Assembly (NCBI GenBank): GCA_029259155.1
Contig: JAPDJI010000006.1
Location: 5,657 to 69,656 of the forward strand
Direction: 5' to 3'
DNA length: 64,000 nt
Source of the DNA: Candidatus Methanomethylicia archaeon
Lineage (GTDB): Archaea; Thermoproteota; Methanomethylicia; Nezhaarchaeales; B40-G2
The notes under the pieces are model-generated. The model saw nothing but the letters and a program-made list of their open reading frames with translations. It searched no databases and had not been told where the DNA came from. The position numbers and the translations under genes were made by a program. Below, in pieces: positions 22,090-57,775 of this stretch (within the stretch, counting starts at the first letter, position 1; each line of letters begins with the position of its first letter).

Positions 22090-22752
22090 ATGGAGACCGA
22101 TGAAGGAGACCTTGCCAAGGTGGTTGAGGCTCTAAAACGTATTGATACCTACCCGGAAGAACTAGGCTTAGACTTAACTAAACCTGAAGGTAGGTTCAAG
22201 TGGCTGTTGGCATCTATCCTGTTCGCTAAACGTATACCGGTCGAGATCGCTAAACGTACCTTCAAGCGCTTCATGGAGGAGGGCTTAACAAGCCCTAAAG
22301 CCTTATTGAAGGCTGGCTGGAATAAGCTCGTTGAAGTACTCGATGCTGGAGGCTACGTACGCTACGATTTCTCCACGGCCTCCAACCTATTAGAAGCCAT
22401 GGAGACCCTTGAAAACCTAGGAGGCTTAGAGGAGCTCTACGAGACGTCTACGAGCCCTGTGGACTTGGAACGTAGATTGATGAGCCTTAAAGGTGTAGGA
22501 CCCACTGCGGTAAGTATTTTCTTACGGGAACTACGTGGAGTCTGGAGTAAAGCTAGGCCCAAGCTTTCAAGTTTCGCTTTAGAGGTCTCTAGAAAACTTA
22601 GGCTTCCTGAGGACCTAGCGGTGGTGCTGGAGCCTAGGCTGGTTAAACTTTTCATAGAGTACTGTAAACGTGGGCGCTGTCCATTATGTCCAGTTAAAAA
22701 CTTTTGTTGTGAAGAGGTTGCGAAAAAGTCGACAGGTAAAAGGCATGGTTAA
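22090..22752 (+). CDS. HhH-GPD superfamily DNA glycosylase-like protein with C-terminal Cys cluster
   Basis: LKGVGPTAVSIFLRELRG helix-hairpin-helix region; C-terminal CKRGRCPLCPVKNFCC resembling an Fe-S cluster loop. Confidence 0.5.
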   Translation: METDEGDLAKVVEALKRIDTYPEELGLDLTKPEGRFKWLLASILFAKRIPVEIAKRTFKRFMEEGLTSPKALLKAGWNKLVEVLDAGGYVRYDFSTASNLLEAMETLENLGGLEELYETSTSPVDLERRLMSLKGVGPTAVSIFLRELRGVWSKARPKLSSFALEVSRKLRLPEDLAVVLEPRLVKLFIEYCKRGRCPLCPVKNFCCEEVAKKSTGKRHG

Positions 22753-31601: not shown

Positions 31602-32384
31602 TTGTTAAAGGCCCTACTCAAACTACTACGGATTTACCCACTGTATGAGAAGTGGCTATGGCATCAGGTTAAAGGTAAACCTATACCTCAACACATAGGA
31701 GTTATCCTGGATGGCAACCGTAGGTGGGCTCAGAACAGGCTATACAAGCCGTGGCTAGGCCACTTTTACGGTGCCGATAAGGCAGAGGAGCTCTTAGACT
31801 GGTGTTTGAAGCTGGGTGTGAAGACATTAACGCTCTACGCTTTTTCAACCGAGAACTTCGAGAGGCCTCCTAATGAGGTGGAGGCTATCTTCAAGGTGAT
31901 AGAGGAGAAGCTGCTTAAACTGACGGATGATCCTAGGATCTATAGACATAAAGTAAAGGTTAAACTGCTTGGGAGGCGCGACCTCCTACCACCTAACCTT
32001 AGGAGGCTTTTCGAGGAAGTTGAACGTAAAACCGAAAACTTTGACCAACACTTCCTCAACATAGCTGTAGCCTATGGAGGGAGAGCTGAGATAGCTGACG
32101 CTGTCAAACGTATAGCTGAGGCAGTGGCGCGAGGAGAGATTGCGCCTGAGGAGGTGGACGAGGAGCTCATAGAACGCCACCTATACACGGCACATCTGCC
32201 CAACCCACACCCAGACCTTATCATAAGGACATCGGGTGAGGAGCGGCTTAGCGGCTTTCTCCTATGGCAGTCAGCGTACAGTGAACTATGTTTTCTCGAT
32301 GTCTACTGGCCGGAGTTTAGGAAGATAGACCTCCTTAGAGCAATAAGGGTATATCAGTCTAGGCAACGGAGATTTGGACGCTGA
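31602..32384 (+). CDS. uppS: Undecaprenyl (cis-prenyl) diphosphate synthase
   Basis: HIGVILDGNRRWA and downstream cis-IPPS motifs. Confidence 0.85.
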   Translation: MLKALLKLLRIYPLYEKWLWHQVKGKPIPQHIGVILDGNRRWAQNRLYKPWLGHFYGADKAEELLDWCLKLGVKTLTLYAFSTENFERPPNEVEAIFKVIEEKLLKLTDDPRIYRHKVKVKLLGRRDLLPPNLRRLFEEVERKTENFDQHFLNIAVAYGGRAEIADAVKRIAEAVARGEIAPEEVDEELIERHLYTAHLPNPHPDLIIRTSGEERLSGFLLWQSAYSELCFLDVYWPEFRKIDLLRAIRVYQSRQRRFGR

Positions 32385-32413: not shown

Positions 32414-32842
32414 CTACCTTAAAATGTGCGCCACTTCAACTCCAAGCTTCTGAAGATACCTCGCTATGAAGCGTCTATGACAACCTCTAGGGTTCTCCTC
32501 CAGACAGAGGAGACAGGTACGTTTTTGGCTCGCTAACTTTAACAGCTCTTTTATTCCGTCCTTAAAGCTCTTCGTATCCATGTAGCGTTCAAAGCCTCCG
32601 CGACGGTAGCCTCCAAGCCTATCTCCCATCCATACATAGCTTATCCCAGCTTCCTTAAGCCACCGCTCCATGTTCTCTCGCGCGAAGTCACCCTGCTTGG
32701 ACTTGGGCCACCTCCTGATGTCTACGACTAGCTCTATTCCACTGGCTTTCAACATGCTTAAGACTCGCTCGCGGCTACGTGAGCCATAGCCTATGGTCCA
32801 AATTTTCAAAGCTCTCTCCGTCAATGTCCTGCTCAAATACAT
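32414..32842 (-). CDS. DUF488-family protein
   Basis: IWTIGYGSRS...LVVDIRRWPKSKQGDF...GISYVWMGDRLGG matches DUF488. Confidence 0.6.
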   Translation of the reverse strand: MYLSRTLTERALKIWTIGYGSRSRERVLSMLKASGIELVVDIRRWPKSKQGDFARENMERWLKEAGISYVWMGDRLGGYRRGGFERYMDTKSFKDGIKELLKLASQKRTCLLCLEENPRGCHRRFIARYLQKLGVEVAHILR

Positions 32843-32930
32843 AATATATGGGCTTCACTAATCCTTTTCCTCTGCGTAGCCCTTAAACATGAGCTGTCTT
32901 TTACTATGAGCGAGATACTGGTGGTTTATC

Positions 32931-33545
32931 TTGGACCTCTGGGAGGCTATAAAAACGAGGAGGAGTATCCGTAAGCTTACAGGGGAGTTAAGCTTCAGCA
33001 GCCTCCTTAAACCTTTGGAAGCGGCTAGATGGGCTCCTAGCGCTCATAATGCTCAGCCATGGAGGTTTCTTCTAATTTTAGATCCTCAAGTTAAAAGAAG
33101 CTTGGCTGAAGCTATGGCTGAAGCTTGGGTCAAGGACCTCATAGCCGACGGCGTAGAGAAAGAAGCCGCTGAGAAGGCAGCTTATAGGTCGGTGATGATG
33201 ATTGTCAGTAGCCCAGTTGCTATAGTTGTCTGTTTAACCATGGAAGATATGCAGAAATATCCTGATGAGCGTAGGAGGAGGGCTGAATATTTAATGGCGG
33301 TTCAAAGCGTTGCGGCAGCCGCGCAGAACCTGCTTTTAGCGCTACATGCTGAAGGTCTGGGTGCATGCTGGCTTTGTGCCCCGCTATTTTGCCAGGAAGC
33401 TGTTAGAGGGGCTCTCGGGATCCCAAGCGACGTAGAGCCGCAGGCCTTGGTAATTGTAGGGCGTCCAGCCGAATCCCCCCTCCCCCCGCCTAGGAGGCAG
33501 TTAAATGAGGTGTTGTTCATCAATAGGTGGGGTGTTAAGCCTTGA
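32931..33545 (+). CDS. Nitroreductase-family flavoprotein (FbiB C-terminal domain-like), translationally coupled to cofD
   Basis: RRSIRKL...APSAHNAQPWRF nitroreductase motif; 4-nt overlap with cofD. Confidence 0.7.
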   Translation: MDLWEAIKTRRSIRKLTGELSFSSLLKPLEAARWAPSAHNAQPWRFLLILDPQVKRSLAEAMAEAWVKDLIADGVEKEAAEKAAYRSVMMIVSSPVAIVVCLTMEDMQKYPDERRRRAEYLMAVQSVAAAAQNLLLALHAEGLGACWLCAPLFCQEAVRGALGIPSDVEPQALVIVGRPAESPLPPPRRQLNEVLFINRWGVKP

Positions 33546-34471
33546 TAACGGCGTTGGCAGGTGGTGTAGGAGCCTCAAAGCTCCTTAGAGGCTTGGTGGA
33601 GGTGGTGGATCCCAGAGAGCTCACGGTGATAGTGAATACCGGGGATGATATAGATCTCTTCGGCCTCTATATCTCACCTGACGTGGATATAGTCACATAC
33701 ACCTTAGCCGGCTTGGTGGATGAGGAGAAGGGTTGGGGTTTCAAGGATGATACCTTCCACTGTCTTGAAACGCTGAAGCTTTATGGTTACGATACGTGGT
33801 TTAAGCTTGGCGACCGCGACTTAGCCACCCACATCCATAGGACCTTGTTGATGAAGGCTGGTTTAACGCTGTCTCAAGCCACTGCTATGATCTCTAAAGC
33901 GTTAGGAGTGCGCTCTAAGATACTGCCGATGAGTAACGATAGGGTCACCTCTATGGTCAAGACGGACCGTGGCGTGATGACTTTTGAGGAGTACTTGGTC
34001 AAGCATAGCATGGTCCCTGAAGTACGAGATGTGTTCTACGCAGGGGTCGAGGATGCTAAACCTGCTCCAGGAGTGGTTGAAGCGTTGGAGGAGGCTAAGG
34101 TTATCGTGATATGTCCAAGCAACCCTGTGGTCAGCATAGGTCCTATACTATCTATCCGAGGTGTACGTGATGCTCTGCGACGTGCTCAGGCTAGGATAGT
34201 GGCGGTATCTCCAATTATAGGCGGCAGGCCTGTAAAGGGGCCAGCTGACAAATTGATGAGAGCATTAGGAGTAGAGGTATCAGCTTACGGAGTGGCTGAA
34301 ATGTACAGGGATTTTCTGGATATCATGTTAATAGACGAGGCGGACGTTAAGCTTAGACCGAGGATAGAGACGCTGGGCATTAAGGTTGCGGCCACCTCGA
34401 CCTTAATGAAGAGCCTCGAAGATAAAATTAGGCTAGCCAGGTTAGTCCTTAAGGAAGGGCTTAAGCATTAA
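33542..34471 (+). CDS. cofD: 2-phospho-L-lactate transferase (F420 biosynthesis)
   Basis: ALAGGVGASKLLRGL N-terminus and the TGDDIDLFGLYISPD region typical of CofD/FbiA. Confidence 0.8.
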   Translation: MITALAGGVGASKLLRGLVEVVDPRELTVIVNTGDDIDLFGLYISPDVDIVTYTLAGLVDEEKGWGFKDDTFHCLETLKLYGYDTWFKLGDRDLATHIHRTLLMKAGLTLSQATAMISKALGVRSKILPMSNDRVTSMVKTDRGVMTFEEYLVKHSMVPEVRDVFYAGVEDAKPAPGVVEALEEAKVIVICPSNPVVSIGPILSIRGVRDALRRAQARIVAVSPIIGGRPVKGPADKLMRALGVEVSAYGVAEMYRDFLDIMLIDEADVKLRPRIETLGIKVAATSTLMKSLEDKIRLARLVLKEGLKH

Positions 34472-34678
34472 CGTGAAAGCCCCTCCAGAATGGAAACTAG
34501 GTACTCCTTAAACTTCTTGAATAATGCTCTTCCAGCCTTGGTTGGGTAGCACCTCTAACCGTTATGTTCTATGAAGGGCATGTCCAGTATTGATGCTCTC
34601 TTTACTTGGAAATCCGCCTTGCTTGAAGCATGAGTAAAAGAATAAAGTTAAAAGTAGCCTACCTGTTAGCTGGGCTCC

Positions 34679-35323
34679 ATGTTGAAGGTTTTTGCTGCTG
34701 TCCCGGTTAAGGAGCTATCTTCAGCCAAGACTAGGCTATCTAAGTTACTATCCCCCGACTTCAAGGAGGTCTTTGTCTTAGCTATGTTGAGAGACGTATT
34801 GGATGCTTTAATGTCATCGAGCTCCCTGAGTGAAGTGATGGTGATTTCCTCAGACCCTGAAATATTAGAGGAGGCTTCAAGGCGAGGAGCCGTAGGGATC
34901 GATGAAGGGGAGCCTAGAGGGATCAATGAGGCTTTAAGGTTGGCGGTCGATGAGGCCTTAAGACGGGGCGCTGAGGCATTGCTTATCGTGCCGTGCGATG
35001 TCCCTCTCATTAAGGCCTCAGACATAGAAAAGTTGATGAGCTTCTTGGAGCCCCCTCCTTCCATGGTTATTTCCCCCTCAAAAAATAGGGAAGGTACCAA
35101 TGCTTTGCTCCTGGCTCCCCCGAACGTCATAGCTCTTCGTTTTGGCCCTCAAAGTTTCCAGAACCATTTAGAGGAGGCGTCTTTAAGAGGGGTCAACGTA
35201 AAGATCTACGAGTCTTCAAGCCTGGCGCTGGATATAGATGAGGAGGAAGACCTTCAGATCCTAAAGCGGATGAAGGGAGAGGGACGTGTCATAGCTCTCC
35301 TAGAGTCTTTTGGTTTTCGATAA
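34679..35323 (+). CDS. cofC: 2-phospho-L-lactate guanylyltransferase (F420 biosynthesis)
   Basis: MLKVFAAVPVKELSSAKTRLS N-terminus and MobA-like NTP-transferase fold typical of CofC/FbiD. Confidence 0.7.
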   Translation: MLKVFAAVPVKELSSAKTRLSKLLSPDFKEVFVLAMLRDVLDALMSSSSLSEVMVISSDPEILEEASRRGAVGIDEGEPRGINEALRLAVDEALRRGAEALLIVPCDVPLIKASDIEKLMSFLEPPPSMVISPSKNREGTNALLLAPPNVIALRFGPQSFQNHLEEASLRGVNVKIYESSSLALDIDEEEDLQILKRMKGEGRVIALLESFGFR

Positions 35324-35416: not shown

Positions 35417-35872
35417 TTGGAGAAGCGGATGAGTTGGGACGAGTACTTTATGGAGATGGCCAAGCTGGTCAGTAAGCGTAGTACCTGTTTAAGGAGGCAT
35501 ACGGGCGCTGTGCTCGTGAAGGATAACCGTATAATTGCTACTGGCTATAATGGAGCCCCTAAAGGGTTACCCCACTGCGCGGAGGTTGGCTGTATGAGGG
35601 AGGCTTTAAAGGTGCCTTCAGGTCAGCGACATGAGCTCTGTAGAGGGCTACATGCGGAGCAGAACGCCATTATTCAGGCAGCGGTGTTCGGCGTAAGCAC
35701 TAGGGGCGCTACGCTGTACACTACGACCTATCCCTGCGTGATATGCGCCAAGATGATTATTAATGCCGAGATCGGGGAGGTAGTGTACGATGACGACTAC
35801 GAGGACGACTTAGCCAAGCGAATGCTCAGCGAGGCGAGGATTAAGGTTAGGAGGTTTAAGACACGACGCTAG
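35417..35872 (+). CDS. dCMP/cytidine deaminase family zinc enzyme
   Basis: HAEQNAI and PCVICAKMI zinc-binding motifs. Confidence 0.75.
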
Positions 35873-37286
35873 CAGCCCGCTCCGCTGCCTCGATCAACGG
35901 GTCTGGATGTAGGCCTAGGGCGAGGCAGATCAAGGCCAGGGCGAACATGGGTATTAGCATGGCGAACGATACTCTAACCCTCCCCAGCCTCCTGCGGGTC
36001 AACATGACTCGGTTGATAAAGCGGAGCCAAGCAGCTGAGAACACCGCCATCATCACCGCTGCGGCCACGGTGGGCGCCAGTAGCCCCACGTCGACCCCGG
36101 CCATGTAAATGAGGAGCTCGCTCACGAATATGTTCAGGCCAGGGATGCCGATGATGGATAAGGAACCTATAAGTCCCGCTGCGCTAGCCTCAGGCATGAA
36201 CCATAGCATGTCGCCCAGCGTCCTAATGTTCCTGACCTTCACCTCATGGACTATGCAACCAGCGTAGAGGAAGAGGAGGCTCTTCACTATCTCATGGTTC
36301 AAGGTGTGAGCCACTGCTGCTACAGCCGCTCCGTGAGCGAAGAGGCCTAGGGCGAAGACCACTAAGCCCATCTCGTTGATGCTTGAGTAAGCCATGAAGC
36401 GCTTGATGTCAAGCTGAGAGAAGGATAGAATGGCTGTGTAGCTAAGCATCGCAAGCCCACATCCCCACACTAGCCAGCTAACTGACCTCAATGACTCTAG
36501 GCTCCAGCAGCCATACAATATCCTTAGGAAGCCGTAGGCCGCGACCTCTATCATCAACCCTGATAGCATGGCGCTGACGGGTGCGGGTGCTTCTGAGTGA
36601 GCATCAGGGAGCCATACGTGAAGCAGGGGGATCACGCCCATCTTAATCAGTAAGCCTATGGACACGGAGGCCGCTGCGAAGACTTCAAGGGGGCTGTCTA
36701 GGCCAAGTTCCTTCACGGCCAGGAGGTTAAAGGTCCCCTTTAAGGCGTAGAGCGATAGCAGGCCGAAGAGGAGGGTTGTTGAGGCCACGTGGGAGATGAG
36801 TAAGTATAGCATCGCTGCCCTAGGTGCCTCAGCGCCCTCCCCGTAAAGGTGAATGAGGGCGTAAGAAGACCAGACCATGAGCTCCCAGAAGAGGTAGAAG
36901 GCTATCATGTCCACTGACATCAAGCATCCAATCATGCCTGAGGTGAAGAGCAGGAGGAGGCCGCTGTAGAGCTGAGAGCCGTGCTCCACATACTTAGTGC
37001 TGTAGGTTAGGCAGGCGTGGCTGATGAAGGAGGCTAGTACCACGAAGGCCGCATTAAGCTCGTCGAAGCACAGCAGCCAGCTAAAGGCCAGCGAGCCTCC
37101 GTGGCCCCAGGAAGCCTCGAAGCACGCTCCCCCTTGGAGGTAGAGCTTGGTCGATAAGGTAAGCGCGGCAATCAACGCGGTGAGCGCAGCGGCCCAGGCC
37201 GCTGTTGGTGGAAGCTTACGCGAGCAGAGCGTATTGAAGCAGCCCACGGCAAGGGGGATTAATAGAATTAAGGCAGCCTCAAACAT
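35856..37286 (-). CDS. Complex I/Mrp antiporter-like subunit, NuoM/MrpD-like
   Basis: [23 protein letters not shown] closely matches the NuoM signature; 14 TM. Confidence 0.7.
36559..36623. repeat. 65-nt tract identical to 38495..38559 (inside paralogous antiporter-like genes)
   Basis: cctgatagcatggcgctgacgggtgcgggtgcttctgagtgagcatcagggagccatacgtgaag occurs in both genes; identity extends to about 72 nt with one mismatch. Confidence 0.9.
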
Positions 37287-39177
37287 GTTTAACCAGCCTC
37301 CAAGCTAGTGTTGCGAGCAGCGAGGCGGTGAAGGCGAGGAGCCAGGCTTGATTAAGCGATGCAGCAAGGAGAGCGGTGAGGAGGGCTGAGAGGGCTAGGC
37401 TTACATCGACCATCCTCCTCAATAGCTCTGCGGGGTGTCTCCTTCTAAGCGCTTGGCCTAGTGGGAGGCTGGAGGCCTTAGAGAAGAAGGCTGACTCGTG
37501 GGTCCTGGCTACCTCCTTGGCGGTCAGCATGGCCGCGTCGGGCAAATCATCTAAGAAGCCAGCTCTAAGCTTAGCTTCGGAGCCTTGGCTTAGGAGCCTC
37601 GACATCCTTAGAAACGACGAGGCCAGCCAGGAATACGCGTAGTCCACGCCGAGCCCAGAGGTCAGCAACGATGTGAGCCTCCTCGGGGCCGTGCAGTTGC
37701 CTATTTGATAATAGGCCCACCATAGGGCCAGGCCGGCCAGTGCGCATAGTAGGGTAGAGGCCATCAGGAAGAGGCTGAGCCTTACTTCGAGGGATTCCAC
37801 GATTCCGAGCGTGACCATCCACCTAGCAGGGGTAATGAGCAGCACGCCTAGAGGAAGGCCTAGGAGGCAAGCTGAGGCAAGCGCTAGCATGGGAGGCAGG
37901 GTGGTGGACGGCGGCGAGGCCTCGACGAGCCTGTAGGAGGAGCCGTAGATGAAGCCGAGTAGCCTAGCCACGTAGGCCACGGTGAGGGCAGAGCCCAGCA
38001 TCATTAACCCAGCCACCCAGAGCCTCCCCTCCTCGAGGGCTGTGTCTATTATCAGGTCCTTGGTGAAGAAGGCGTTGAGAGGAGGGATGGCTGCGAGGGC
38101 TAGGGCACCTATAGCGAAGGCAGCTCCATGAAGCCTTAGGTCGGTCCCCACCCCCCTAAGCACCCTTAAGTCCCTAGACCCAGCAGCGTGGCTTAACACG
38201 CCGGCGGCTAGGAAGAGGAGGGACTTGAAGAGGGCATGGCTGAAGGCGTGTAGGCCTGCTGCCACTAAGCCCAGCGTGGAAGCTAGGCCGAGGGAGGCCA
38301 CCATGTACCCTAGCTGGCTTATGGAAGAGAAGGCCAACACCCTCTTCACGTCAAGCTCGACTAGGGCTGCTGCCCCTCCATAAAGCAGGGTTACTACCCC
38401 CCCGAGGAGTAGTAGGGGGGCCAGCCCCTCAGCTATTTCCACGCTTAAGTCCATGGTCCTAATCAGCATGTAGACCCCGACGTGTACCATCAATCCTGAT
38501 AGCATGGCGCTGACGGGTGCGGGTGCTTCTGAGTGAGCATCAGGGAGCCATACGTGAAGTGGGTAGATGGCCACCTTGAAGGCTAGCCCAGCGACCATTA
38601 AGGCGCAGGCCAGCTTCAAGCCCCACGTAGCCTCGTGGGCTGCTAAGAAGCGTAGCTGAGCGAGGTCGAAGGTATGGGTGGTCATGTAGAAGGTGACTAT
38701 GGACACTACCATCAACGCGCCGCCTAGGTGAGTGAAAATGAAGTACTTAGTAGCTATCGACAGCGCTTTCTCCTTGGGACACTCAGCCCAGTGGGCTATA
38801 AGGAGGTAGGAAGGTATCAACATGAACTCCCAGAACACGTAGAAGAGCACGAAGTTTCTTGAGGTCACTGAGCCAGCCATGCCGAGGGCGAAGAGGCATA
38901 GCAGGCCGAAGAACCTGGACCTATCAGTCTCCACGTAGCTGTGAGAGTAGACGCTGGCGAGGAGCGATATGGTGAGCACGAGGACTATGAAAGCCTGGGA
39001 GAGTAGGTCGTTGAAGAAGGGTAGGTCAATGGGGTCGGGGATGAAGAGGAAGGCGAGAGACATAGCCAAACCAAGTGAAGCTGCGAGACCTGCGTGTTCC
39101 TCAAGCCTATCGCTCACCGCTATGGTTAGAAGCACACCAGTGGCGGAGAGAACCATGAGAGAGTAGAGGGTACCCAT
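37279..39177 (-). CDS. Complex I/Mrp antiporter-like subunit, NuoL/MrpA-like (632 aa)
   Basis: [33 protein letters not shown] and a length consistent with NuoL including a long C-terminal region. Confidence 0.7.
   Translation of the reverse strand: MGTLYSLMVLSATGVLLTIAVSDRLEEHAGLAASLGLAMSLAFLFIPDPIDLPFFNDLLSQAFIVLVLTISLLASVYSHSYVETDRSRFFGLLCLFALGMAGSVTSRNFVLFYVFWEFMLIPSYLLIAHWAECPKEKALSIATKYFIFTHLGGALMVVSIVTFYMTTHTFDLAQLRFLAAHEATWGLKLACALMVAGLAFKVAIYPLHVWLPDAHSEAPAPVSAMLSGLMVHVGVYMLIRTMDLSVEIAEGLAPLLLLGGVVTLLYGGAAALVELDVKRVLAFSSISQLGYMVASLGLASTLGLVAAGLHAFSHALFKSLLFLAAGVLSHAAGSRDLRVLRGVGTDLRLHGAAFAIGALALAAIPPLNAFFTKDLIIDTALEEGRLWVAGLMMLGSALTVAYVARLLGFIYGSSYRLVEASPPSTTLPPMLALASACLLGLPLGVLLITPARWMVTLGIVESLEVRLSLFLMASTLLCALAGLALWWAYYQIGNCTAPRRLTSLLTSGLGVDYAYSWLASSFLRMSRLLSQGSEAKLRAGFLDDLPDAAMLTAKEVARTHESAFFSKASSLPLGQALRRRHPAELLRRMVDVSLALSALLTALLAASLNQAWLLAFTASLLATLAWRLVKHV
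38495..38559. repeat. 65-nt tract identical to 36559..36623
   Basis: See the paired repeat. Confidence 0.9.
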
Positions 39178-39181
39178 CGAC

Positions 39182-40633
39182 CTAGACCTCCATCATCCAA
39201 CTCTCCTCCAAGCAGGCTACGGCCGCCTTGTGAGCTGACTCAAGGAACGGTGAAGGAGCGAGGCCTATGAGGAAGCAACTTATGATCAGCGAGATTATTA
39301 GGGCTCGGAGGCCCCAGCTAGCTCCACGCTGCGTGGATGGCCCCTCCCCGGCCCTGCTGTACATGGAGTAGAGAGCCCTCATGAAAGATGCCAGCATAAC
39401 TAGGTCGAGCACGATGAAGGCCGCCGCTACCCATAGGAGACCCTCCTCAACCATCGATAGGAACACTAAGAACTTGCTGTGGAAGCCGTTGAGTGGGGGC
39501 ACAGCGCAGCTACTGAGCGAGGCTATAAGGAAGCCAGTGGTGCCTAGTAGCACGTGTTTATAGGCACCCTTTAAGGCATAGATTCTCCTTCCCTGAGAGG
39601 ACTGTATGAAGAGCGCTATGCTGGCGAAGAAGAGGTTCTTAATTAACACGAGGTTGAGCACGTGGAAGAAGACTCCTTGAAGGGCCGTATGGTTAGCTAT
39701 GCCCCAAGCCATCATCAACACACCCCCCTCCCCCACTGAGGTACAGGTTACGAGGCGCTTAAGGTCGTCCTGGCCGAGCGCAAGTAGGTAGCCAGCAGCC
39801 ATGTTTACAACAGCGGCCGCGAGGAAGAAGTCCTTCAAGGCTGGTAAGAGGGGACGGTACACGGTGAATAACATGCGGGTCGCTCCATAGAAGCCGACGA
39901 CTCTCACCGCAGCAGCCATGAACGCGCTCGAGGGGCTTGGAGCCCATGGGTTAACCCCCGGGAACCATATATGGGCTGGGAACACCGCTAACTTCACCCA
40001 AAAACCTCCCAGCACGAGGGGTAGGGTCAGCCATAGAGCCTGAGGCGGAATAGTGGAAGCCACCTCAGGTATCATGGTCGACCCTGCCTGAAGAGCTAGT
40101 ACCGCGAAGCCGAGCACGAGGAGGATGGTGGAGGCCGCGTCGAAGGCTAAGTAGAGCGCTAAGCTCTCCCTAGGCCCTGTATCTATGCCGACCTCGTCAG
40201 GTAGGCGGGGGGCCATGAAGTAGTAGGAGGCCAAGTTCATCAATAGGTAGAAGAGGAGAAAGCTAAGGAGGTCGCCACAGTAAATAAGGCTCACGATCCC
40301 CAGCAGGGATAAGGTGAGGGAAGCATAGTAAGCAGGATCGTTTAGCTTCTTTAAGTAAGTAGCTGCTAAGAGCATGGCGGCAGCTCCAGCCATGGTGAAC
40401 TTCTCGAGGAGCAGTGCTCCATAGGCGTCCAGGAAGAGAAGGCTTGGAGACCTAGAGAGCACGGCTGGGGTATCCTCGACAAGGGGGGCTGCTAAAAACG
40501 AAGCTGCTAGGCAGGCTAGGGAGCCTACTACAGCTACGTAGCTAGTAAGCTTAGCTCCACGCTTCACTACCGCTGAGGCTGAGGTGGCTACAGCTGTAAC
40601 AATAGCCGCCTGTAGAGGCAGTGAGGCTAGCAA
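39182..40633 (-). CDS. Complex I/Mrp antiporter-like subunit, NuoN/MrpD-like
   Basis: HIWFPGVNPWAPSPSSAFMAAAV motif; 14 TM. Confidence 0.65.
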   Translation of the reverse strand: MLASLPLQAAIVTAVATSASAVVKRGAKLTSYVAVVGSLACLAASFLAAPLVEDTPAVLSRSPSLLFLDAYGALLLEKFTMAGAAAMLLAATYLKKLNDPAYYASLTLSLLGIVSLIYCGDLLSFLLFYLLMNLASYYFMAPRLPDEVGIDTGPRESLALYLAFDAASTILLVLGFAVLALQAGSTMIPEVASTIPPQALWLTLPLVLGGFWVKLAVFPAHIWFPGVNPWAPSPSSAFMAAAVRVVGFYGATRMLFTVYRPLLPALKDFFLAAAVVNMAAGYLLALGQDDLKRLVTCTSVGEGGVLMMAWGIANHTALQGVFFHVLNLVLIKNLFFASIALFIQSSQGRRIYALKGAYKHVLLGTTGFLIASLSSCAVPPLNGFHSKFLVFLSMVEEGLLWVAAAFIVLDLVMLASFMRALYSMYSRAGEGPSTQRGASWGLRALIISLIISCFLIGLAPSPFLESAHKAAVACLEESWMMEV

Positions 40634-40649
40634 TTCACAAGGCCTCCAA

Positions 40650-41300
40650 TCAGAGGCCGAGGAAGTGTAGCCTATGCCTTCTCCTTAATAGGATGACTGC
40701 GTCTCCCTGCTCCAGCTGAGGTACTTCGTTAGGTAGTAAGGCGGCCCCCCCTCTGAGTATGAGGAGGGGGTAGGTGTCTTTGAGCTTCCTGCGTATGTCC
40801 AGCGGCCTAAGCCCCTTTAGCCTAGAGCCTTCGTCCACGGACACCTCCTCGACCTCTATGTCCTTGCGCACCATCTCAAGTAGCTCGAAGAGGCTTATTC
40901 TCCTAATCTTAGCGTAGATCCTTAACACCGAGGAATCTACGTGGTTGACCAGCTCGTGAAAGCCCAGCGACCTACAGACCTCAGCGTAGGAGGCGTGCTT
41001 TATTCGAACAAGCACCCTTCTAGCTCCTAGGTTCTTGGCTAGGAGGGAAGCAATGAGGTTCACTGGGTCGCTCCCTGTCAGGGCGGCGAAGACGTCAGCC
41101 CTCCCCACGCCCGCCTCGATTAACACGCGTGGGTCAGTGGCACTTCCGGTGAAGACGTTAACCTCAGCCTCGAGAGACTTGGCTAGCCTCTCGGTGACCT
41201 CTGGGCTAGTGTCGATGGCCGCTACTTTGTAGCCGTGGAGCACCATCCTCCTCACCGTGGCCTCTCCAACGTCGCCTAAGCCGGCCACTATGATAAACAA
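40650..41300 (-). CDS. trkA: TrkA/RCK protein (TrkA-N Rossmann plus TrkA-C)
   Basis: IIVAGLGDVG (GxGxxG) and C-terminal RCK_C. Confidence 0.75.
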   Translation of the reverse strand: MFIIVAGLGDVGEATVRRMVLHGYKVAAIDTSPEVTERLAKSLEAEVNVFTGSATDPRVLIEAGVGRADVFAALTGSDPVNLIASLLAKNLGARRVLVRIKHASYAEVCRSLGFHELVNHVDSSVLRIYAKIRRISLFELLEMVRKDIEVEEVSVDEGSRLKGLRPLDIRRKLKDTYPLLILRGGAALLPNEVPQLEQGDAVILLRRRHRLHFLGL

Positions 41301-41932
41301 CCACTAGCCCCCTCCTTGTGTCTGATTAACACGAGGACATCGCCCGGCTCCAGCGTCAAGTCGGGGTCGGGGAACTTCACCTCCCCCTCTGACAACACGA
41401 AGGCTGGGTAGGAGTTCTTCAGAACCTCCTCACCGAGCTCCTTGATCTTCCTCCACGCTAGCTCCGAGCCCTCCCCTATCTCGACGTGCTCGACGTCGAC
41501 GAAGTGCTCACCTATAGAGACTACGTCGGCCAGCTTAAAGCCATGGACAGATGCATCGATCCTAAACGCTGTGGCCTCGGCTGGGCTACAGATCTCGGTG
41601 AGGCCGACCATCCTACAGGCCTCCACGTACACCGGGTTCTCGACCCTCACCAACACCCTCCTAGCTCCCTGATGCTTAGCCAGTAGAGCTGAGACTAAGT
41701 TTACATCGTCGCTCCCCGTCAACGCTAAGAAGGTGTCAGCTTCCTCAACCCTCACCTGTTCCATGACGTGGGGGTCTGTTACGTCACCCTTCACCACCTC
41801 AACCCCCCTTGCCTCAAGCTCCCTGCAAGCAGCCTCATCGCGCTCGATCACCACGACGTGATAGCCAAGCCCCTTCAAGTAGGTCGCCAGCGCCCTCCCG
41901 ATGTCGCCTCCTCCGGCTATCACTACCTTCAC
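41288..41932 (-). CDS. trkA: TrkA/RCK protein (TrkA-N plus TrkA-C)
   Basis: VVIAGGGDIGRALA and C-terminal RCK_C; 13-nt overlap with the next trkA. Confidence 0.75.
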   Translation of the reverse strand: MKVVIAGGGDIGRALATYLKGLGYHVVVIERDEAACRELEARGVEVVKGDVTDPHVMEQVRVEEADTFLALTGSDDVNLVSALLAKHQGARRVLVRVENPVYVEACRMVGLTEICSPAEATAFRIDASVHGFKLADVVSIGEHFVDVEHVEIGEGSELAWRKIKELGEEVLKNSYPAFVLSEGEVKFPDPDLTLEPGDVLVLIRHKEGASGCLS

Positions 41933-42027
41933 TCCCTACCTCACCGCCGACCTTAAACTCTTAGATACGTAAAAGGGTATCGCCGTAAAGGAAATAGGTC
42001 GGCTAGTAAAAGAAACTATAGATAGGC

Positions 42028-42675
42028 TTGTTCGTGGTCATAGCTGGCGGCGGTGGTGTTGGTAAAGCTCTGGCTAAGAGGCTTATTGAGAGAGGGGAGA
42101 GGGTCGTCGTAGTGGACAAGGACCCCTCGACGTGCTCTATGCTTCGAGAGGAGCTGGGCGTCGAGGTGGTAGAGGGCGATGCTACCAACATGAACGTCCT
42201 CCAGCGCGCTGGCGTCGAACACTGTGACGCCCTCTTCGCCCTAGTTGGCCAGGGCAACATCAACGTCATGATAGCGTTGGCTGCCACTGTCTGTGGCTGT
42301 AAGGCTGGGAGGGTTGTAGTGAGGGTGGACAACGACCGCTACCTTGAAGTGTGTAGCATGCTCGGCTTGAAGGAGGTCGTGAACCCAGCTAAATCGGTGG
42401 CCGTAGTGGTGTCCGAGATGGTTAGAGGTGTCAAGCTAACCACGTTGGCGGAGATGTACTACAAGGGTTACATCGACGTAGAGAGCGTAAAGGCAGAGGA
42501 TGAACAGTATCTACAGGCCCTCGTAACTAAGATTGCCCATATGGTAGGTCAAGAATGCCACCCTATCCTCGTGATAAGGAACAGTAAGATCATGCTTCCT
42601 GAGCCTAACCTCAAGCTCAAGGCAGGGGATGAGGTAGTTCTCATAAAGCGGAGGAGTTTGATGTGCGCGTCGTGA
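42028..42675 (+). CDS. trkA: TrkA/RCK protein (TrkA-N plus TrkA-C)
   Basis: VVIAGGGGVGKALA; divergent from the minus-strand trkA pair. Confidence 0.75.
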   Translation: MFVVIAGGGGVGKALAKRLIERGERVVVVDKDPSTCSMLREELGVEVVEGDATNMNVLQRAGVEHCDALFALVGQGNINVMIALAATVCGCKAGRVVVRVDNDRYLEVCSMLGLKEVVNPAKSVAVVVSEMVRGVKLTTLAEMYYKGYIDVESVKAEDEQYLQALVTKIAHMVGQECHPILVIRNSKIMLPEPNLKLKAGDEVVLIKRRSLMCAS

Positions 42676-43289
42676 TAGCTGGAGGAGGAGATCTCGGGGA
42701 GTCGGTCGCCAGGATCTTAAAAATTCAAGGCGTACACGTCACCATAGTAGATCGAAGTAGGAAAACTTGTGAGAAGCTTGCTAAAAGGCTAGATGTGGAC
42801 TTTGTTGAAGGAGATGTCAGTGACCCATTAACGCTGGAAGAGGCGAGAATTGAGGAGGCTTCGGCTTTCCTAGCTTTAACGGGCGATGACTCCATTAACA
42901 CTATCTCCTCGCTCATAGCTAAGCGATACGGAGTTCCAAGAATAATAGCTAGAATAGAAGACTCGAGCTATGCTCGCGTATGTGAGGCTAATGGGGTGGA
43001 GGTCGTCAGCTTCGTTGAATCAGCCTCTATGATGTTGGAGGCCATATTGTATCACAATAAGCTGATCGAACTAACCTCATTAATAGAGGAGGAGGGGTTG
43101 GACATAGAGCGCATAGATTACCACGGTAAAACAGGGGAGTTAAAAATTAAGCATAATGACGCCTACCCAATTATGGTGGTGAGGGGCGGCGAAGTCTTCC
43201 TGCCCAATCCAGGGCTTAAGCTTAAAGATGGTGACAGAATATTCATCATAAAAAGGCGTAAGAAGCTCTTCTACATACCTGAGCTTTAA
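42663..43289 (+). CDS. trkA: TrkA/RCK protein (TrkA-N plus TrkA-C)
   Basis: VVIAGGGDLGESVA; 13-nt overlap with the previous gene. Confidence 0.75.
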   Translation: MRVVIAGGGDLGESVARILKIQGVHVTIVDRSRKTCEKLAKRLDVDFVEGDVSDPLTLEEARIEEASAFLALTGDDSINTISSLIAKRYGVPRIIARIEDSSYARVCEANGVEVVSFVESASMMLEAILYHNKLIELTSLIEEEGLDIERIDYHGKTGELKIKHNDAYPIMVVRGGEVFLPNPGLKLKDGDRIFIIKRRKKLFYIPEL

Positions 43290-44731
43290 AGCACTATACC
43301 TGTCGAGAAGTAAAGAGCTGTGCCTATGAGGATGACGATGAACCATAGGAGAAGATCTAAGAACCTTTTACGCCTCGTTAACCCAGGCCTTCTGGTCAGC
43401 TGTGACGGATAAATAGTTATGTTTAGCCTCTTGGCCACTAAGAAGGAGATCATGGATGCTATCAGCATAGGTGCGAATAAGCTGAAGTTACTGCATGTTT
43501 CACATAGGAGTAGGATAGTAGACATGGGTACTCTACCGGCAGCGGCGTAGAGCGCAGCCATCCCAGCGACTATGTAGGCAACATGCGCCCCTGACCTAAC
43601 TATGAATTCAGGAAATAGCGCATCGAGAGCTAATGCGTAAGCTCCACCTATCATCGCTCCGCAGAAAAGCGAAGGTACTATTACACCTCCAGCTCCAGCG
43701 CTAGCTATGGAAAAAGTGCTAGCCAAGATTTTTCCGAAGTATAAAAGGAGGAAAACCCATATCAGAAGGTGGCCAAAGCTATTAAAGAGCTCCGTGAAAT
43801 CTATGGTTTCCTGTATTACCCAGTAGCCCATTCCCCATAAATAGAGCTCCCCTAGCATTAAAAGCCCTAACAACACGACGAGGCCGTCGAGCAGTCCTCC
43901 AATAGCTGGCCTTAAAGGTCTAGGTATTTTAGAGTCTCTAATCGGGTAATGGAAGGCATAGAATATTTTAGTCCATAGAGCAGCTGCAATAACCGATACA
44001 AGCCCCAGCAACGCCATGCCTGCGACGTGAAATAAGCTGTAAGCTACGTTGGGGTTCAGTATTAACATGTCATGGAACTTTGGAAAAGTTACGAGAGGCT
44101 CTGAGCCTAAAAGGGAGTTGAACAGCAGAAAACCTACTACCGAAGATATCAGGGCTGACGGTAAAGCTTCCACCTCGACGTCTTCAGAGTATAGGACCTC
44201 GCTAGCAAAGATCCCCCCACCGAGGGGGGCACTGAAGATTCCTCCTAAAGCCCCTGCAGCTCCACAGATAGCCACTATCTTAGCGTCTCTACGCGTAAAC
44301 TTCATGAACCTCCCAAGCCATGTTTTCTTAAAGAAGAGGTTGATGGCTGCGGCGACGGCGCTGCCTGAATATGCCATAGGACATTCTCTGCCAGCGCTGC
44401 CACCTGTACCTATGGTTAGGGAGGCGGTCAAGATTTTCAATACCCCTTTGCCCGGGTTTGTATACCCATGATGTAGGTGGACGAGCTCTATCATGCCATC
44501 GGTGGAGCATGGAATGTAGAATGCATCTTTGTCTAGAAGGTAATTAAGTAAGCCTACGGCTAAACCGCCTGCAAAAGGTATGAGGGCTACCATAAACAAT
44601 AAGCCTTGACTACGAGCTTGATTGACGAGATCTAAGAAGAACTCTATGGAGAACTTCAAGGAAACAGTAAAGGCTATGCCTGCGATTCCACCGAGAAGTC
44701 CTGAAAGGAGGCCAAAGATCACCCATTTCAT
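43286..44731 (-). CDS. ClC-family chloride channel / Cl-/H+ antiporter
   Basis: GSAGRECP and GGIFASEV motifs corresponding to the ClC selectivity-filter regions G(K/R)EGP and GxFxP; about 10-12 TM. Confidence 0.65.
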   Translation of the reverse strand: MKWVIFGLLSGLLGGIAGIAFTVSLKFSIEFFLDLVNQARSQGLLFMVALIPFAGGLAVGLLNYLLDKDAFYIPCSTDGMIELVHLHHGYTNPGKGVLKILTASLTIGTGGSAGRECPMAYSGSAVAAAINLFFKKTWLGRFMKFTRRDAKIVAICGAAGALGGIFSAPLGGGIFASEVLYSEDVEVEALPSALISSVVGFLLFNSLLGSEPLVTFPKFHDMLILNPNVAYSLFHVAGMALLGLVSVIAAALWTKIFYAFHYPIRDSKIPRPLRPAIGGLLDGLVVLLGLLMLGELYLWGMGYWVIQETIDFTELFNSFGHLLIWVFLLLYFGKILASTFSIASAGAGGVIVPSLFCGAMIGGAYALALDALFPEFIVRSGAHVAYIVAGMAALYAAAGRVPMSTILLLCETCSNFSLFAPMLIASMISFLVAKRLNITIYPSQLTRRPGLTRRKRFLDLLLWFIVILIGTALYFSTGIVL

Positions 44732-44993
44732 AATTCTATTACTTAATATTTCATGTACATTTAGGATCGTTGAGAGGCCACCCCGGAACTCTCATTTCCC
44801 TATAGTTAGGACTATCTCCCCCCTGTGATGGCAACTTATGAATAAACTTTTTGCTGTTTTTTCAAGGTAGCGTAGGGCGAGTGAAAACTACGACGACTTA
44901 AGTACTATTGCTGTTGAGAAATGTAGCGCTGTGTCTATTATGGTGACAGCGAACAACATAAGATGGTCGTCCTGAAACTTTGGGGAGATGTGG

Positions 44994-46130
44994 CTAAGAC
45001 CCGCCGCTTAACTTGAAGAAGTTTAAAATGGTCTTTGCAGCTATTCTTGCACCGTTCAAGACGTCTGCGACTTTAACGTACTCGTCTTTAACGTGCGCCT
45101 GCCCCCTGGTCATGGTACCTATAGACACTATAGGCACATTGAACAGCCTGTGAAGTTGAGCTGCATCTATCCAACCTTTAGCCACGGTTGGCCAAGCCTT
45201 AAAGCCTTCGTCTTTAGCTGCTTCCAAGGCAGCCTTCGCTATGGGGCTTGACGGCTCAATCACGTAGCCTTTCAGCCCGCCCTTTAGCCTGACCTTAAAA
45301 CCATGTTTAAGTGCTCTATTTGCCACCTCTAGCACGCGCCTTACGGCATCTTTAGGGCTTAAGGTAGGTAGGAGCCTAAAGTTCACGTTCATGTAACATG
45401 AGTCAGGTACCATGGTGGGCCACTCACCTCCCTTAATGACTGTGACGGTAACGTTCTCGACGACCGGTAGAGGTCTTTCCATCCGCTGTAAAATTCTTGG
45501 GGATCGTAGCTCGCTGATAAGGTCGTAGGCCCTATAGATGGCGTTGACTCCAAGCTCAGGCTCTGAGGAATGATAAGCCTTACCTTCCACTATCACCTCC
45601 ACGTTAGCTATACCTCTACATCCTATCACTACTTCACATTGTCTGTCTTCAGCATCTATATAATGGTCTAGGCATATGCCAGCGTCGACGTCCACCTTGT
45701 CCTTCAACCCTCTCCTCGCCCTCACCTTACCTCCTCCCTCTTCCCTCGATGTGAAGAGAAGCACAAGCCTCCCGGGGAGGTGCTGAGTAACGAGCGCCTT
45801 GGCTATGGTCAACATCGCCGCCACTCCTGCCTTATTGTCTGAGGCCCCTCTACCGTACACCTTACCTTCTCTAAGCATACCTGAGTAGGGATCTATGGTC
45901 CATCCGTTTCCCGGCGGGACCGTGTCAAGGTGAGCGTTTAGTAAGACCCTGCGTTTTCCGCTACCTAGCTCGGCTATGACGTTGAAGTAGCCATCTACCT
46001 CGGCTCTCAGCCCCATCTCCTGTAGCTTAGAAACTACTAGCTTCGCAACTTTTTCTTCTCCTCTAGGAGGGCTTGGAATCTTAACTAGTTCCTGAAGGGT
46101 TTTAACCAAGTAATCTGAGTCCAGCTCCAT
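44994..46130 (-). CDS. M20-family metallohydrolase (ArgE/DapE/LysK-like)
   Basis: HLDTVPPGNGWTIDPY ... GRGASDNKAG metal-binding motifs. Confidence 0.75.
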   Translation of the reverse strand: MELDSDYLVKTLQELVKIPSPPRGEEKVAKLVVSKLQEMGLRAEVDGYFNVIAELGSGKRRVLLNAHLDTVPPGNGWTIDPYSGMLREGKVYGRGASDNKAGVAAMLTIAKALVTQHLPGRLVLLFTSREEGGGKVRARRGLKDKVDVDAGICLDHYIDAEDRQCEVVIGCRGIANVEVIVEGKAYHSSEPELGVNAIYRAYDLISELRSPRILQRMERPLPVVENVTVTVIKGGEWPTMVPDSCYMNVNFRLLPTLSPKDAVRRVLEVANRALKHGFKVRLKGGLKGYVIEPSSPIAKAALEAAKDEGFKAWPTVAKGWIDAAQLHRLFNVPIVSIGTMTRGQAHVKDEYVKVADVLNGARIAAKTILNFFKLSGGS

Positions 46131-46169
46131 ACAGGAGCCTTTTATACTGCTAGCTTCTTAAAGCCTATT

Positions 46170-46514
46170 GTGGACGTAGAAGCTAAGATTTTAGGGGCGA
46201 AGGCAGCGGAGAAGTCTCTAAATCGTTATGGGGCCCTTCTCGAAGGAGTTGCTGTCTACCTTAGCGACTGCTGTCTTGACGGTAAACCCTACGCTGAAAT
46301 ATACGTCTTCCTTGAAGAACTTCCTATCGAAGAGGAGGATATAGCCTCAGAGATTCTAGCCTCAATTAAGGAAGGTGAGTGTGCAGGCGTATCAGTGTTT
46401 GTCTTCACTTTAAGCGAAGTTGAGCGTAGAAGAGGCAGCCTAATAGAGGCGTTGAAGGTCTCCCACATAGCTTACGACAGGTCTGGTAGAATTAAGCGCC
46501 TCTTGGAAACCTAG
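46170..46514 (+). CDS. Hypothetical protein (114 aa)
   Basis: ORF only. Confidence 0.3.
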   Translation: MDVEAKILGAKAAEKSLNRYGALLEGVAVYLSDCCLDGKPYAEIYVFLEELPIEEEDIASEILASIKEGECAGVSVFVFTLSEVERRRGSLIEALKVSHIAYDRSGRIKRLLET

Positions 46515-46581
46515 AAGTCAAGGTAACGTACTTTCCCTACGTTATAGATGGGTCTTAAAGGCGTGCCTCAAGCATGGTATG

Positions 46582-53257: not shown

Positions 53258-53669
53258 TGATCTTTCTCAGCTCAGCTCTCACGTATTCTGGGAGCAGGCG
53301 AGGGTTAAGCCCCCTCGGCTCGTTGAAGTCGCGTACCTTATCATTCACAGGCGCCATCATAACTCCTCGGCTCAGTATATTGTCGAGAGCCTCTAAGTAG
53401 ACCTCTAAGTCGCCTCGCTCTAGACCTCTGCTCACGAGCATCCTTCTCAGCGCCTCTACGACCTCAGGTATGTGTACTGCATTGGGACATACGGCCTCAC
53501 AGGTGTGACATAATAGGCAGAGCCAAAGGTGGTCGTGAAGCGCCTCTCTACCCATCGCTACGTTTAGCATGACTCTTCTAGGGCTGAAGCTCATTGTAGC
53601 TCTTGCTGATGGACAGGCAGATGTACATGCTCCACACTGGATACATCTGCGTCCTTCACTGAGTAGCAA
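53217..53669 (-). CDS. hdrC: Heterodisulfide reductase subunit C-like (2x[4Fe-4S])
   Basis: CIQCGACTSACP and CLLCHTCEAVCP. Confidence 0.7.
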   Translation of the reverse strand: MLLSEGRRCIQCGACTSACPSARATMSFSPRRVMLNVAMGREALHDHLWLCLLCHTCEAVCPNAVHIPEVVEALRRMLVSRGLERGDLEVYLEALDNILSRGVMMAPVNDKVRDFNEPRGLNPRLLPEYVRAELRKIIGGRGPKPRGKKA

Positions 53670-57768: not shown

Positions 57769-57775
57769 TAAGCGT

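Follow-up and report, generated by a model that had tools for sequence, protein, structure and literature searches.

The 204-residue nitroreductase-fold protein encoded directly 5' of cofD in this DNA of an uncultured TACK archaeon is probably a standalone FMN-dependent dehydro-F420-0 reductase (FbiE) in a route that builds F420 from phosphoenolpyruvate (PEP). Such an identity would imply that F420 is made from PEP, or at least that a PEP-derived by-product is repaired. Directly observed are the family, fold and clade of the protein, its gene junction with cofD, the conserved synteny and the domain fusions of its relatives. The preliminary description of this DNA had suggested a PEP/dehydro-F420-0 route, and this is the best reading of family, fold, clade, synteny and fusions; what we infer in it is PEP as the physiological substrate.

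The features of the locus are listed below, with positions in the window, that is, the whole 64-kb stretch of DNA that was analysed.

32916-32922, plus strand: putative Shine-Dalgarno-like GGTGG, 5' of the nitroreductase start, read from the sequence
32931-33545, plus strand: fbiE-like gene of nitroreductase fold, 204 aa, putative standalone FMN-dependent dehydro-F420-0 reductase
33542-33545, plus strand: TTGA, the 4-nt overlap of the nitroreductase TGA stop and the cofD TTG start, read from the sequence
33542-34471, plus strand: cofD/fbiA, 309 aa (TIGR01819 and PF01933)
34472-34678, no strand: cofD-cofC spacer, 207 nt, without recognised RNA or ORF
34679-35323, plus strand: cofC/fbiD, 214 aa, of 2-PL/PEP and not 3-PG type (TIGR03552)

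All ORFs were found where the preliminary description had placed them, together with the claimed 4-nt overlap between the nitroreductase gene and cofD, while the distance to cofC, given there as 200 nt, is 207 nt when measured. The nitroreductase starts with a TTG codon, the GGTGG run lies 8 nt 5' of it, and the N-terminus, MDLWEAIK, agrees with those of homologues in an alignment. The junction reads ...aag cct TGA / TTG ata acg gcg ttg gca ggt ggt: the TGA stop of the nitroreductase occupies 33543-45 and the TTG start of cofD 33542-44, about 12 nt 3' of a GGTGGGG. The start at 33542 is favoured, as the TIGR01819 alignment begins at residue 2; an alternative in-frame TTG at codon 5 (33554) would leave an 8-nt gap and no overlap. 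With either start the two genes are contiguous on one strand, and because of this arrangement they would be co-transcribed and are probably translationally coupled.

In the spacer before cofC an A/T-rich stretch, aaagaataaagttaaaag, is found about 30-45 nt 5' of the ATG, and it may have a promoter role. An Rfam scan of the spacer gave no match, Rfam and tRNA scans of the whole window returned nothing, and a sigma-70 promoter and terminator scan, whose model is not applicable to archaea, gave chance-level matches only. The window encodes Hdr/Mvh-type anaerobic modules. Genes for CofE, CofG and CofH are absent from the 64 kb (Pfam on about 50 ORFs; tblastn with the CofE of a related locus), so F420 synthesis by the host organism is presumed.

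CofC is a guanylyltransferase for the activation of PEP or 2-PL, and CofD is the transferase that links the C3 acid in its activated form (LPPG or EPPG) with FO. As in the methanogen pathway, both partner proteins are recognised at equivalog level: CofD scores 366.6 bits against TIGR01819 (cutoff 257.45), with 198 bits for PF01933, and CofC 169 bits against TIGR03552 (cutoff 105). The PDB matches of CofC are 7P97, 2I5E and 6BWG. Its D107, D185 and D187 align with the Mg-binding aspartates D116, D188 and D190 of Mtb-FbiD, and S159 aligns with S166 (residue roles from PMC8764529). G156, within the motif R-F-G-P-Q-S, aligns with S162 of Mrhiz-CofC and G163 of Mtb-FbiD. Ser/Thr at the S162 position is the mark of a CofC that activates 3-PG (PMC8764529); with Gly156 where Ser/Thr is required, as in 2-PL/PEP enzymes, a 3-PG-activating CofC is ruled out. 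The inspection of CofC specificity residues that had been proposed for this locus therefore excludes the 3-PG type, but it cannot separate PEP from 2-PL, since no CofC residue tells the users of these two substrates apart (Hasan 2022, PMC8764529).

The 204-residue protein itself matches PF00881 over its full length (106.7 bits). Its top NCBIfam match is TIGR03553, the FbiB C-terminal domain (142.8 bits, 191 of 194 positions). The BluB model TIGR02476 comes second with 75.6 bits, half its cutoff of 150 and half the FbiB-C score, the NfsA and NfsB profiles give 30.8 and 20.2 bits (cutoffs 223 and 227), and none of the remaining models exceeds 35 bits. By sequence, the best PDB match is Mtb FbiB-C (4XOM/4XOO/4XOQ; 96 bits, E 1.5e-26), followed by one of 75 bits. 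An AF2 model (pLDDT 89.4) has the alpha/beta nitroreductase topology, and the first 11 Foldseek matches to it are all FbiB-C chains at TM 0.81-0.82, with generic nitroreductases at 0.73 or below and BluB at 0.70. Profiles, PDB, Foldseek and the tree described below all favour FbiB-C over NfsA/NfsB and BluB, in agreement with the earlier view that the protein is FbiB-C-like.

It should be kept in mind that 142.8 bits lies under the curated equivalog-domain cutoff of TIGR03553, which is 249.55. This cutoff is also missed by the standalone T. roseum protein (163.4 bits, compared with 86 for BluB) and by relatives fused to CofC, CofD or CofE (134-143 bits); what it marks out is therefore the fused domain of actinobacteria and not the activity.

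The dehydro-F420-0 pocket modelled in Mtb FbiB includes P289, R337 and M372, of which M372 lines the methylene pocket (PMC6450877). M122 of the window protein, the equivalent of M372, is invariant in the alignment, as is the FMN-phosphate motif RRSxR (R10, R11, S12, R14) across archaeal, T. roseum and FbiB-C sequences. Conservation of the pocket is incomplete: the P289 position is Ala in the archaeal proteins, and while R86 aligns with R337, T. roseum has Gly at this position and several Bathyarchaeia have Glu. As the Arg is not shared with T. roseum, we dropped this position as diagnostic.

In a neighbour-joining tree of reduced references (a distance method only, 200 bootstraps), the window protein, its archaeal relatives, the T. 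roseum nitroreductase and the CofC-NTR, NTR-CofD and CofE-NTR fusions form one clade with 100% bootstrap. Outside it lie BluB, NfsA and NfsB, with the annotated BluB grouping with NfsA, and the Mtb FbiB-C side is a separate, well-supported actinobacterial clade. Placing the protein relative to FbiB C-domains, a check that the preliminary description had named, thus puts it outside NfsA/NfsB/BluB and together with the T. roseum enzyme. This tree replaced a larger neighbour-joining tree of 140 representatives, which was star-like and uninformative at depth. MSMEG_2027-like proteins are Ddn/FDOR split-barrel proteins with a fold unlike that of nitroreductases, and because the folds differ a joint phylogeny with them is not meaningful.

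The resemblance to the Thermomicrobia FbiE from the T. roseum megaplasmid (WP_012643075.1) extends beyond the shared clade. Both are single-domain proteins of about 200-225 aa, they are 47.7% identical, the motifs G-x-x-W-x-C-A-P-L-F-C and RRSxR are common to both, and each is encoded with cofD and cofC. However, the host here is an archaeon (Thermoproteota, near Nezhaarchaeales) and not a Chloroflexota/Thermomicrobiota bacterium, Ala in place of Pro at the Mtb P289 position distinguishes the window protein from the T. roseum one, and the gene order is fbiE-cofD-(207 nt)-cofC in the window, where the first two genes overlap by 4 nt, but cofD-cofC-transporter-NTR in T. roseum. According to the summaries in PMC8498797 and PMC8764529 of Braga 2020, the standalone T. 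roseum nitroreductase reduces dehydro-F420. We take WP_012643075.1 to be the enzyme assayed there because it is placed in the T. roseum cofD-cofC cluster; a literature search for the accession WP_012643075 returned no paper.

FbiB-C also reduces dehydro-F420 (PMC6450877). It is the best structural and profile match, and has in common with the window protein the FMN-phosphate arginines, the M372-equivalent Met and the same proposed FMNH2 hydride chemistry. In contrast, the window protein is 31-35% identical to it, has no CofE fusion, stays below the curated cutoff and carries 'CAPLFC' where Mtb FbiB-C has 'GSTIFA'. FbiB-C is needed for tail elongation as well, which is a precedent for a helper role.

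Relatives of the protein are encoded in at least 586 species-level genomes, mostly of Bathyarchaeia, with Nezhaarchaeales, Asgard lineages and a few Chloroflexota. Synteny was counted in the best 80 of these 586 loci, all from different species. The nitroreductase gene is tied to cofD in 61 of the 80 (76%): in 41 it directly precedes cofD in the same orientation, in 19 the two genes stand head-to-head, and in one they are no more than 1.4 kb apart. Because the linkage recurs in so many related loci, the adjacency of the two genes is not due to chance. The claimed pairing thus holds in relatives and the arrangement is real, and neither of the two outcomes that the preliminary description had named as refuting its reading (a place among NfsA/NfsB or BluB, or loss of synteny) was observed. 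It is, however, no oddity of a single organism, as the preliminary description had framed it; hundreds of genomes from Bathyarchaeia, Nezhaarchaeales and Asgard lineages have this arrangement as their standard.

Further F420 genes are found within 8 kb on either side in the same best 80 of 586 loci: cofC in 23, cofE in 19, an FrhB-like gene in 12 and a luciferase-like F420 oxidoreductase in 8. An ECF-S-like transporter is attached in a further 19, and in some of these related clusters a PfkB-family kinase adjoins cofD. There are also 12 among the 80 that have enough flank and no F420 gene nearby. Nitroreductase relatives of 44-51% identity occur as fusions with CofC (P0125), CofD (P0126) and CofE (P0154, P0174).

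In the mechanism that we propose, CofC would condense PEP and GTP to enolpyruvyl-diphospho-guanosine, and CofD would move the enolpyruvyl-phosphate onto FO to give dehydro-F420-0. A homodimer of the nitroreductase-fold protein, its FMN reduced to FMNH2 by a presumed electron donor, is predicted to reduce the terminal methylene with a hydride from N5 of the flavin, producing the (S)-lactyl group of F420-0. Glutamates would be added by a CofE encoded elsewhere. Since fbiE and cofD are probably coupled, the enzymes that form and reduce the labile phosphoenol intermediate may be present in stoichiometric amounts.

The archaeal source of the F420 lactyl linker has been disputed since 2019. Bashiri 2019 postulated a PEP route and a missing archaeal reductase, 'CofX', for which they looked only beside cofE and found none (PMC6450877). 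The 2021 review of Grinter and Greening describes standalone FbiE homologues in predicted archaeal F420 producers and suggests a PEP route (PMC8498797). Hasan 2022, on the other hand, restored 2-PL as the substrate in the archaea under test: two archaeal CofC/CofD pairs, as well as earlier M. jannaschii work, favoured it (PMC8764529). Those 2-PL-favouring pairs belong to a different CofC clade and have Ser/Thr at the diagnostic site. The premise that archaea are assumed to have no need of such a reductase, from which the preliminary description started, is thus half true, given the postulated CofX (PMC6450877) and the FbiE homologues noted in archaea (PMC8498797). Standalone reductases in Thermomicrobia and, in general terms, FbiE homologues in archaea are already known; what this locus still adds is that it opens the archaeal 'CofX' question to direct testing.

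Unlike in the methanogen 2-PL pathway, which has no step for a reductase, the gene for a putative one is here welded to cofD. It is nevertheless conceivable, if rather unlikely, that F420 comes mainly from 2-PL, as is assumed for methanogens, and that the protein is a dehydro-F420 reductase for salvage or proofreading, which rescues the dehydro-F420-0 formed when a promiscuous CofC/CofD pair now and then uses the abundant PEP. In vitro, CofC enzymes of every source take PEP as well as 2-PL, and Mjan-CofD has relaxed specificity towards EPPG (PMC8764529). The sequence is compatible with this, as no residue separates the two kinds of users, and if the PfkB-family kinase seen beside cofD in some clusters makes 2-PL, both routes would coexist. 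However, no 2-PL-forming kinase ('CofB') has ever been identified (PMC6450877), a reductase so closely coupled with CofD and CofC, and in places even fused to them, suggests an obligatory step, and organisms with documented 2-PL use are not among the best 80 of 586 loci.

Functions vary widely within the nitroreductase superfamily, and the protein could also be an FMN- or F420-binding oxidoreductase for a different substrate (an enoyl or nitro compound, or flavin/deazaflavin recycling) or a non-catalytic helper of CofD or CofE. Other close relatives are fused to unrelated modules (PNPOx-like, TPR, DJ-1/SnoaL), about 15-25% of the related loci (best 80 of 586) have no F420 neighbours, and a Paraburkholderia plasmid homologue of 46% identity is found among FAD-binding proteins, without cof genes. 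We consider this improbable in the face of independent fusions to three consecutive F420-assembly enzymes, the cofD linkage in most of the best 80 of 586 loci, the fully supported clade with the cluster-encoded T. roseum enzyme and the invariant Met of the methylene pocket.

BluB is an O2-requiring 5,6-dimethylbenzimidazole synthase of the same superfamily fold and the second-best profile; that the window protein is of this type, or a generic NfsA/NfsB that stands beside cofD by chance, is effectively refuted by the sub-cutoff profiles, the tree placement and the cofD synteny in 61 of the best 80 of 586 loci, to which can be added the blastp scores (66 bits for annotated BluB, 151-183 for FbiE-type proteins), the lack of cob genes in the neighbourhood (ORFs, Pfam) and the O2-dependent chemistry, unlikely in an anaerobe with Hdr/Mvh-type modules.

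Returning to the reading as an FbiE of a PEP-based route, the credible TACK/Asgard reductase lies beside cofD, not cofE, and is sometimes fused to cofD. We would give an even chance to the broader proposal that the fbiE-cofD unit is the archaeal 'CofX' and that most non-euryarchaeal F420 archaea build F420 from PEP via dehydro-F420-0. The lineages concerned would then be Bathyarchaeia, Nezhaarchaeales and Hel-, Hermod- and Promethearchaeota, and the 2-phospho-L-lactate route would be a speciality of methanogens/Euryarchaeota and not 'the archaeal pathway'. Further, one clade spanning Chloroflexota and TACK/Asgard lineages suggests that a PEP-type cassette was passed between the domains. The ECF-S-like transporter attached in 19 of the best 80 of 586 loci would permit F420 to be assembled from scavenged FO.

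For reconstitution the locus offers a clonable candidate and a defined CofC/CofD/FbiE trio. It is also relevant to metabolic reconstructions of Bathyarchaeia, to compact F420 pathways from thermophile-derived parts and to gene annotation, where JGI calls the relatives "FbiB-like" and NCBI records call them 'nitroreductase family protein'.

The locus consists of three ORFs on the same strand:

32931-33545, +, nitroreductase-fold protein (NTR), 204 aa
33542-34471, +, CofD, 309 aa (TIGR01819 366.6 bits; curated NCBIfam equivalog cutoff 257.45)
34679-35323, +, CofC, 214 aa (TIGR03552 169 bits; curated NCBIfam equivalog cutoff 105)

The preliminary description had a 4-nt overlap between NTR and cofD, and cofC about 200 nt further on. 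Both are borne out: the junction (...aag cct TGA / TTG ata acg gcg...) is a 4-nt TTGA overlap, and the spacer before cofC measures 207 nt and has zero Rfam matches. NTR starts with TTG, 8 nt downstream of GGTGG, while for cofD a Shine-Dalgarno-like run, GGTGGGG, lies ~12 nt upstream of the junction. If cofD instead started at a second TTG, in frame at its codon 5, an 8-nt gap would take the place of the overlap; the overlapping start is favoured because the CofD profile alignment starts at residue 2. Whichever start applies, NTR and cofD are one predicted transcription unit.

[quoted passage not shown] In a sequence search of solved structures the top match is the same domain (FbiB-C) of M. 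tuberculosis (4XOM/4XOO/4XOQ, 96 bits, E 1.5e-26), and the BluB structure 2ISJ reaches 55 bits. With an AlphaFold2 model (pLDDT 89.4, pTM 0.84), the top 11 Foldseek matches are all FbiB-C chains (TM 0.81-0.82); below them are a C. difficile nitroreductase (0.73) and BluB (0.70). The TIGR03553 score falls below the curated cutoff of 249.55 bits. As a control we used the standalone nitroreductase WP_012643075.1 of T. roseum DSM 5159, which is encoded on a megaplasmid within a cofD-cofC-transporter-NTR cluster and is 47.7% identical to NTR. It is also below the cutoff (163.4 bits; BluB 86), and the cutoff therefore marks off actinobacterial fused domains, not function. NTR has a 99% identical counterpart in a 'Thermoprotei archaeon' MAG.

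In a neighbour-joining tree of a reduced reference alignment (BLOSUM62 distances, 200 bootstraps), NTR, its archaeal relatives, the T. roseum protein, a Paraburkholderia plasmid homologue and non-actinobacterial fusions with CofC, CofD or CofE form a clade with 100% support. The actinobacterial FbiB-C domains form their own clade (100%), placed as its sister with weak support (44%). Annotated Marinobacter BluB, E. coli NfsA and NfsB, and 3GFA fall outside both clades, in keeping with the FbiB-C-like character first proposed for NTR. Pairwise blastp scores with NTR as query are 151-183 bits for FbiE-type (standalone) and fused relatives, 99-118 for FbiB-C, 66 for BluB and 30-38 for NfsA/NfsB. 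The proteobacterial member of the clade (Paraburkholderia sp. PGU19 plasmid, L082:4929-5603, 46% identity) is surrounded by FAD-binding and acyl-CoA metabolism genes, with cof genes absent nearby, and may have been recruited to another substrate.

Residue roles were taken from FbiB (PMC6450877), using an offset of 241 from 4XOM chain numbering, verified on P289. The methylene-pocket M372 corresponds to M122 in NTR and is invariant in the alignment, as is the RRSxR FMN-phosphate motif. The carboxylate partner R337 is matched by R86 in NTR, but T. roseum has Gly at this position and several Bathyarchaeia have Glu, so the residue has no diagnostic value. At P289, T. roseum has the Pro and the archaeal proteins carry Ala. 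In place of the GSCWIGSTIFA of actinobacterial FbiB-C, the standalone FbiE-type clade conserves a Cys-rich G-x-C-W-x-C-A-P-L-F-C (C146, C149 and C154 within residues 146-154 of NTR; protein alignment A2).

Scanning one genome per GTDB species, we found relatives of NTR in at least 586 genomes; the following counts are from the best 80 of these loci. Bathyarchaeia predominate, alongside Nezhaarchaeales, Helarchaeota, Hermodarchaeota, Promethearchaeota and two Chloroflexota bacteria. NTR lies directly 5' of cofD on the same strand in 41/80 loci (gap of at most 25 nt in 32 of the 41) and head-to-head with it in 19, so the pair is syntenic in relatives. In one locus cofD is 1.4 kb off, in 12 it is absent despite adequate flanks, and in 7 the contig is too short. 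Within +/-8 kb we find cofC at 23 loci, cofE (PF01996) at 19, an FrhB/FdhB-like F420-binding protein at 12 and a luciferase-like F420 oxidoreductase at 8. Of the species-level genomes, the two nearest are L001, a Nitrososphaerota-labelled MAG (73% identity) whose gene order matches the window (UppS-DUF488-NTR-CofD...CofC-dCMP deaminase), and L053, a Nezhaarchaeales MAG.

In the window a DUF488 gene (32414-32842, -) is transcribed divergently from NTR, with UppS (31602-32384, +) beyond; their positions are kept in L001 and L053, not in Bathyarchaeia, and this synteny is lineage-specific, with no evident F420 link. Directly 5' of the NTR-cofD pair, 19 of the best 80 loci carry an ECF-transporter S-component-like membrane protein (L003:7302-7934, L011:7285-7884, L006:7442-8005; weak Pfam ECF_trnsprt / ECF-ribofla_trS matches). 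This protein may be a transporter that salvages FO or flavin for F420 assembly in genomes without cofG/cofH. Head-to-head clusters that also have cofE recurrently contain a PfkB-family sugar-kinase-like gene (9 loci, e.g. L014:4834-5919) and a conserved protein of 241 aa that lacks Pfam matches (8 loci, e.g. L014:8662-9387). We know of no identified 2-phospholactate-forming 'CofB'; the kinase as a candidate is pure speculation.

We infer the chemistry and substrate of NTR as follows. CofC would activate PEP with GTP, and CofD would move enolpyruvyl phosphate onto FO, giving dehydro-F420-0. [quoted passage not shown] Co-translation with CofD would stop the labile phosphoenol intermediate from building up. 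In the 64-kb window cofE, cofG and cofH were not found (Pfam on ~50 ORFs; tblastn with CofE from a related locus). That NTR is a dehydro-F420-0 reductase is probable; that PEP is the main physiological route is favoured only slightly. The chief rival is a pathway that runs mainly on 2-PL, with NTR rescuing a by-product formed from PEP. The CofC substrate residues, suggested earlier as a check, settle one part: Gly156 (position of Mrhiz-CofC Ser162 / Mtb-FbiD Gly163) and Ser159 (position of Ser166) exclude the 3-PG type. PEP and 2-PL are inseparable in this way, as CofC assays cannot tell their use in vivo, CofD being a second filter (Hasan et al., PMC8764529), and by extension neither can CofC residues. 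The 2-PL-specific archaeal CofC/CofD pairs of that study have Ser/Thr at the Gly156-equivalent site, and their CofC thus belong to another clade.

When 1.84 billion cluster representatives were searched exhaustively with HMMER, 109 passed E <= 1e-30. Among these the NTR domain is independently fused to three consecutive F420-assembly enzymes, which is strong evidence that the domain acts at the F420-assembly stage:

P0125, CofC-NTR, 393 aa, 49-51% identity to NTR
P0126, NTR-CofD, 535 aa, 48% identity
P0154 and P0174, CofE-NTR, 44-47% identity

The few other fusions (PNPOx-like, TPR, DJ-1/SnoaL) reflect the plasticity of the nitroreductase superfamily and keep alive, as a minor rival, an oxidoreductase acting on a different substrate.

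Standalone reductases were reportedly demonstrated in Thermomicrobia by Braga in 2020. FbiB-C reduces dehydro-F420-0, and a search limited to the archaeal cofE neighbourhood gave nothing convincing, so that an unknown archaeal 'CofX' was postulated (Bashiri 2019, PMC6450877). A 2021 review (PMC8498797) names standalone reductases FbiE and notes that archaea predicted to produce F420 have independent homologues, which it takes to suggest a PEP route. Many relatives carry the JGI label 'F420 biosynthesis protein FbiB-like protein'. The initial idea, an FbiB-C-like protein hinting at a PEP/dehydro-F420-0 route, holds up, and in its general form is already in the literature. Our literature search found no paper quantifying cofD linkage in TACK/Asgard archaea or testing an archaeal member, and the locus is of interest because the archaeal PEP route can be tested concretely with it.

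Elsewhere in the window, ORFs at 10473-11660 (+, 395 aa), 13990-15417 (-, 475 aa) and 22090-22752 (+, 220 aa) have no Pfam match at E 0.01. An Hdr/Mvh-like redox cluster (52343-59047, -) points to a metabolism that is anaerobic and possibly electron-bifurcating:

52343-53257, -, HdrB-like CCG protein
54066-55373, -, polyferredoxin
55357-57450, -, HdrA-like flavoprotein fused to MvhD/FlpD
57776-59047, -, FwdB/molybdopterin-like protein

Together with the closest relatives, these modules indicate an anaerobic Thermoproteota (TACK) archaeon. Further, 35856-48009 is an unusually dense ion-transport island:

35856-40633, three large Mrp/Nuo-type antiporter-like membrane subunits, with markedly higher GC (0.57 versus ~0.49 elsewhere)
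40650-43289, four TrkA-N paralogues
43286-44731, CLC channel
46582-48009, TrkH
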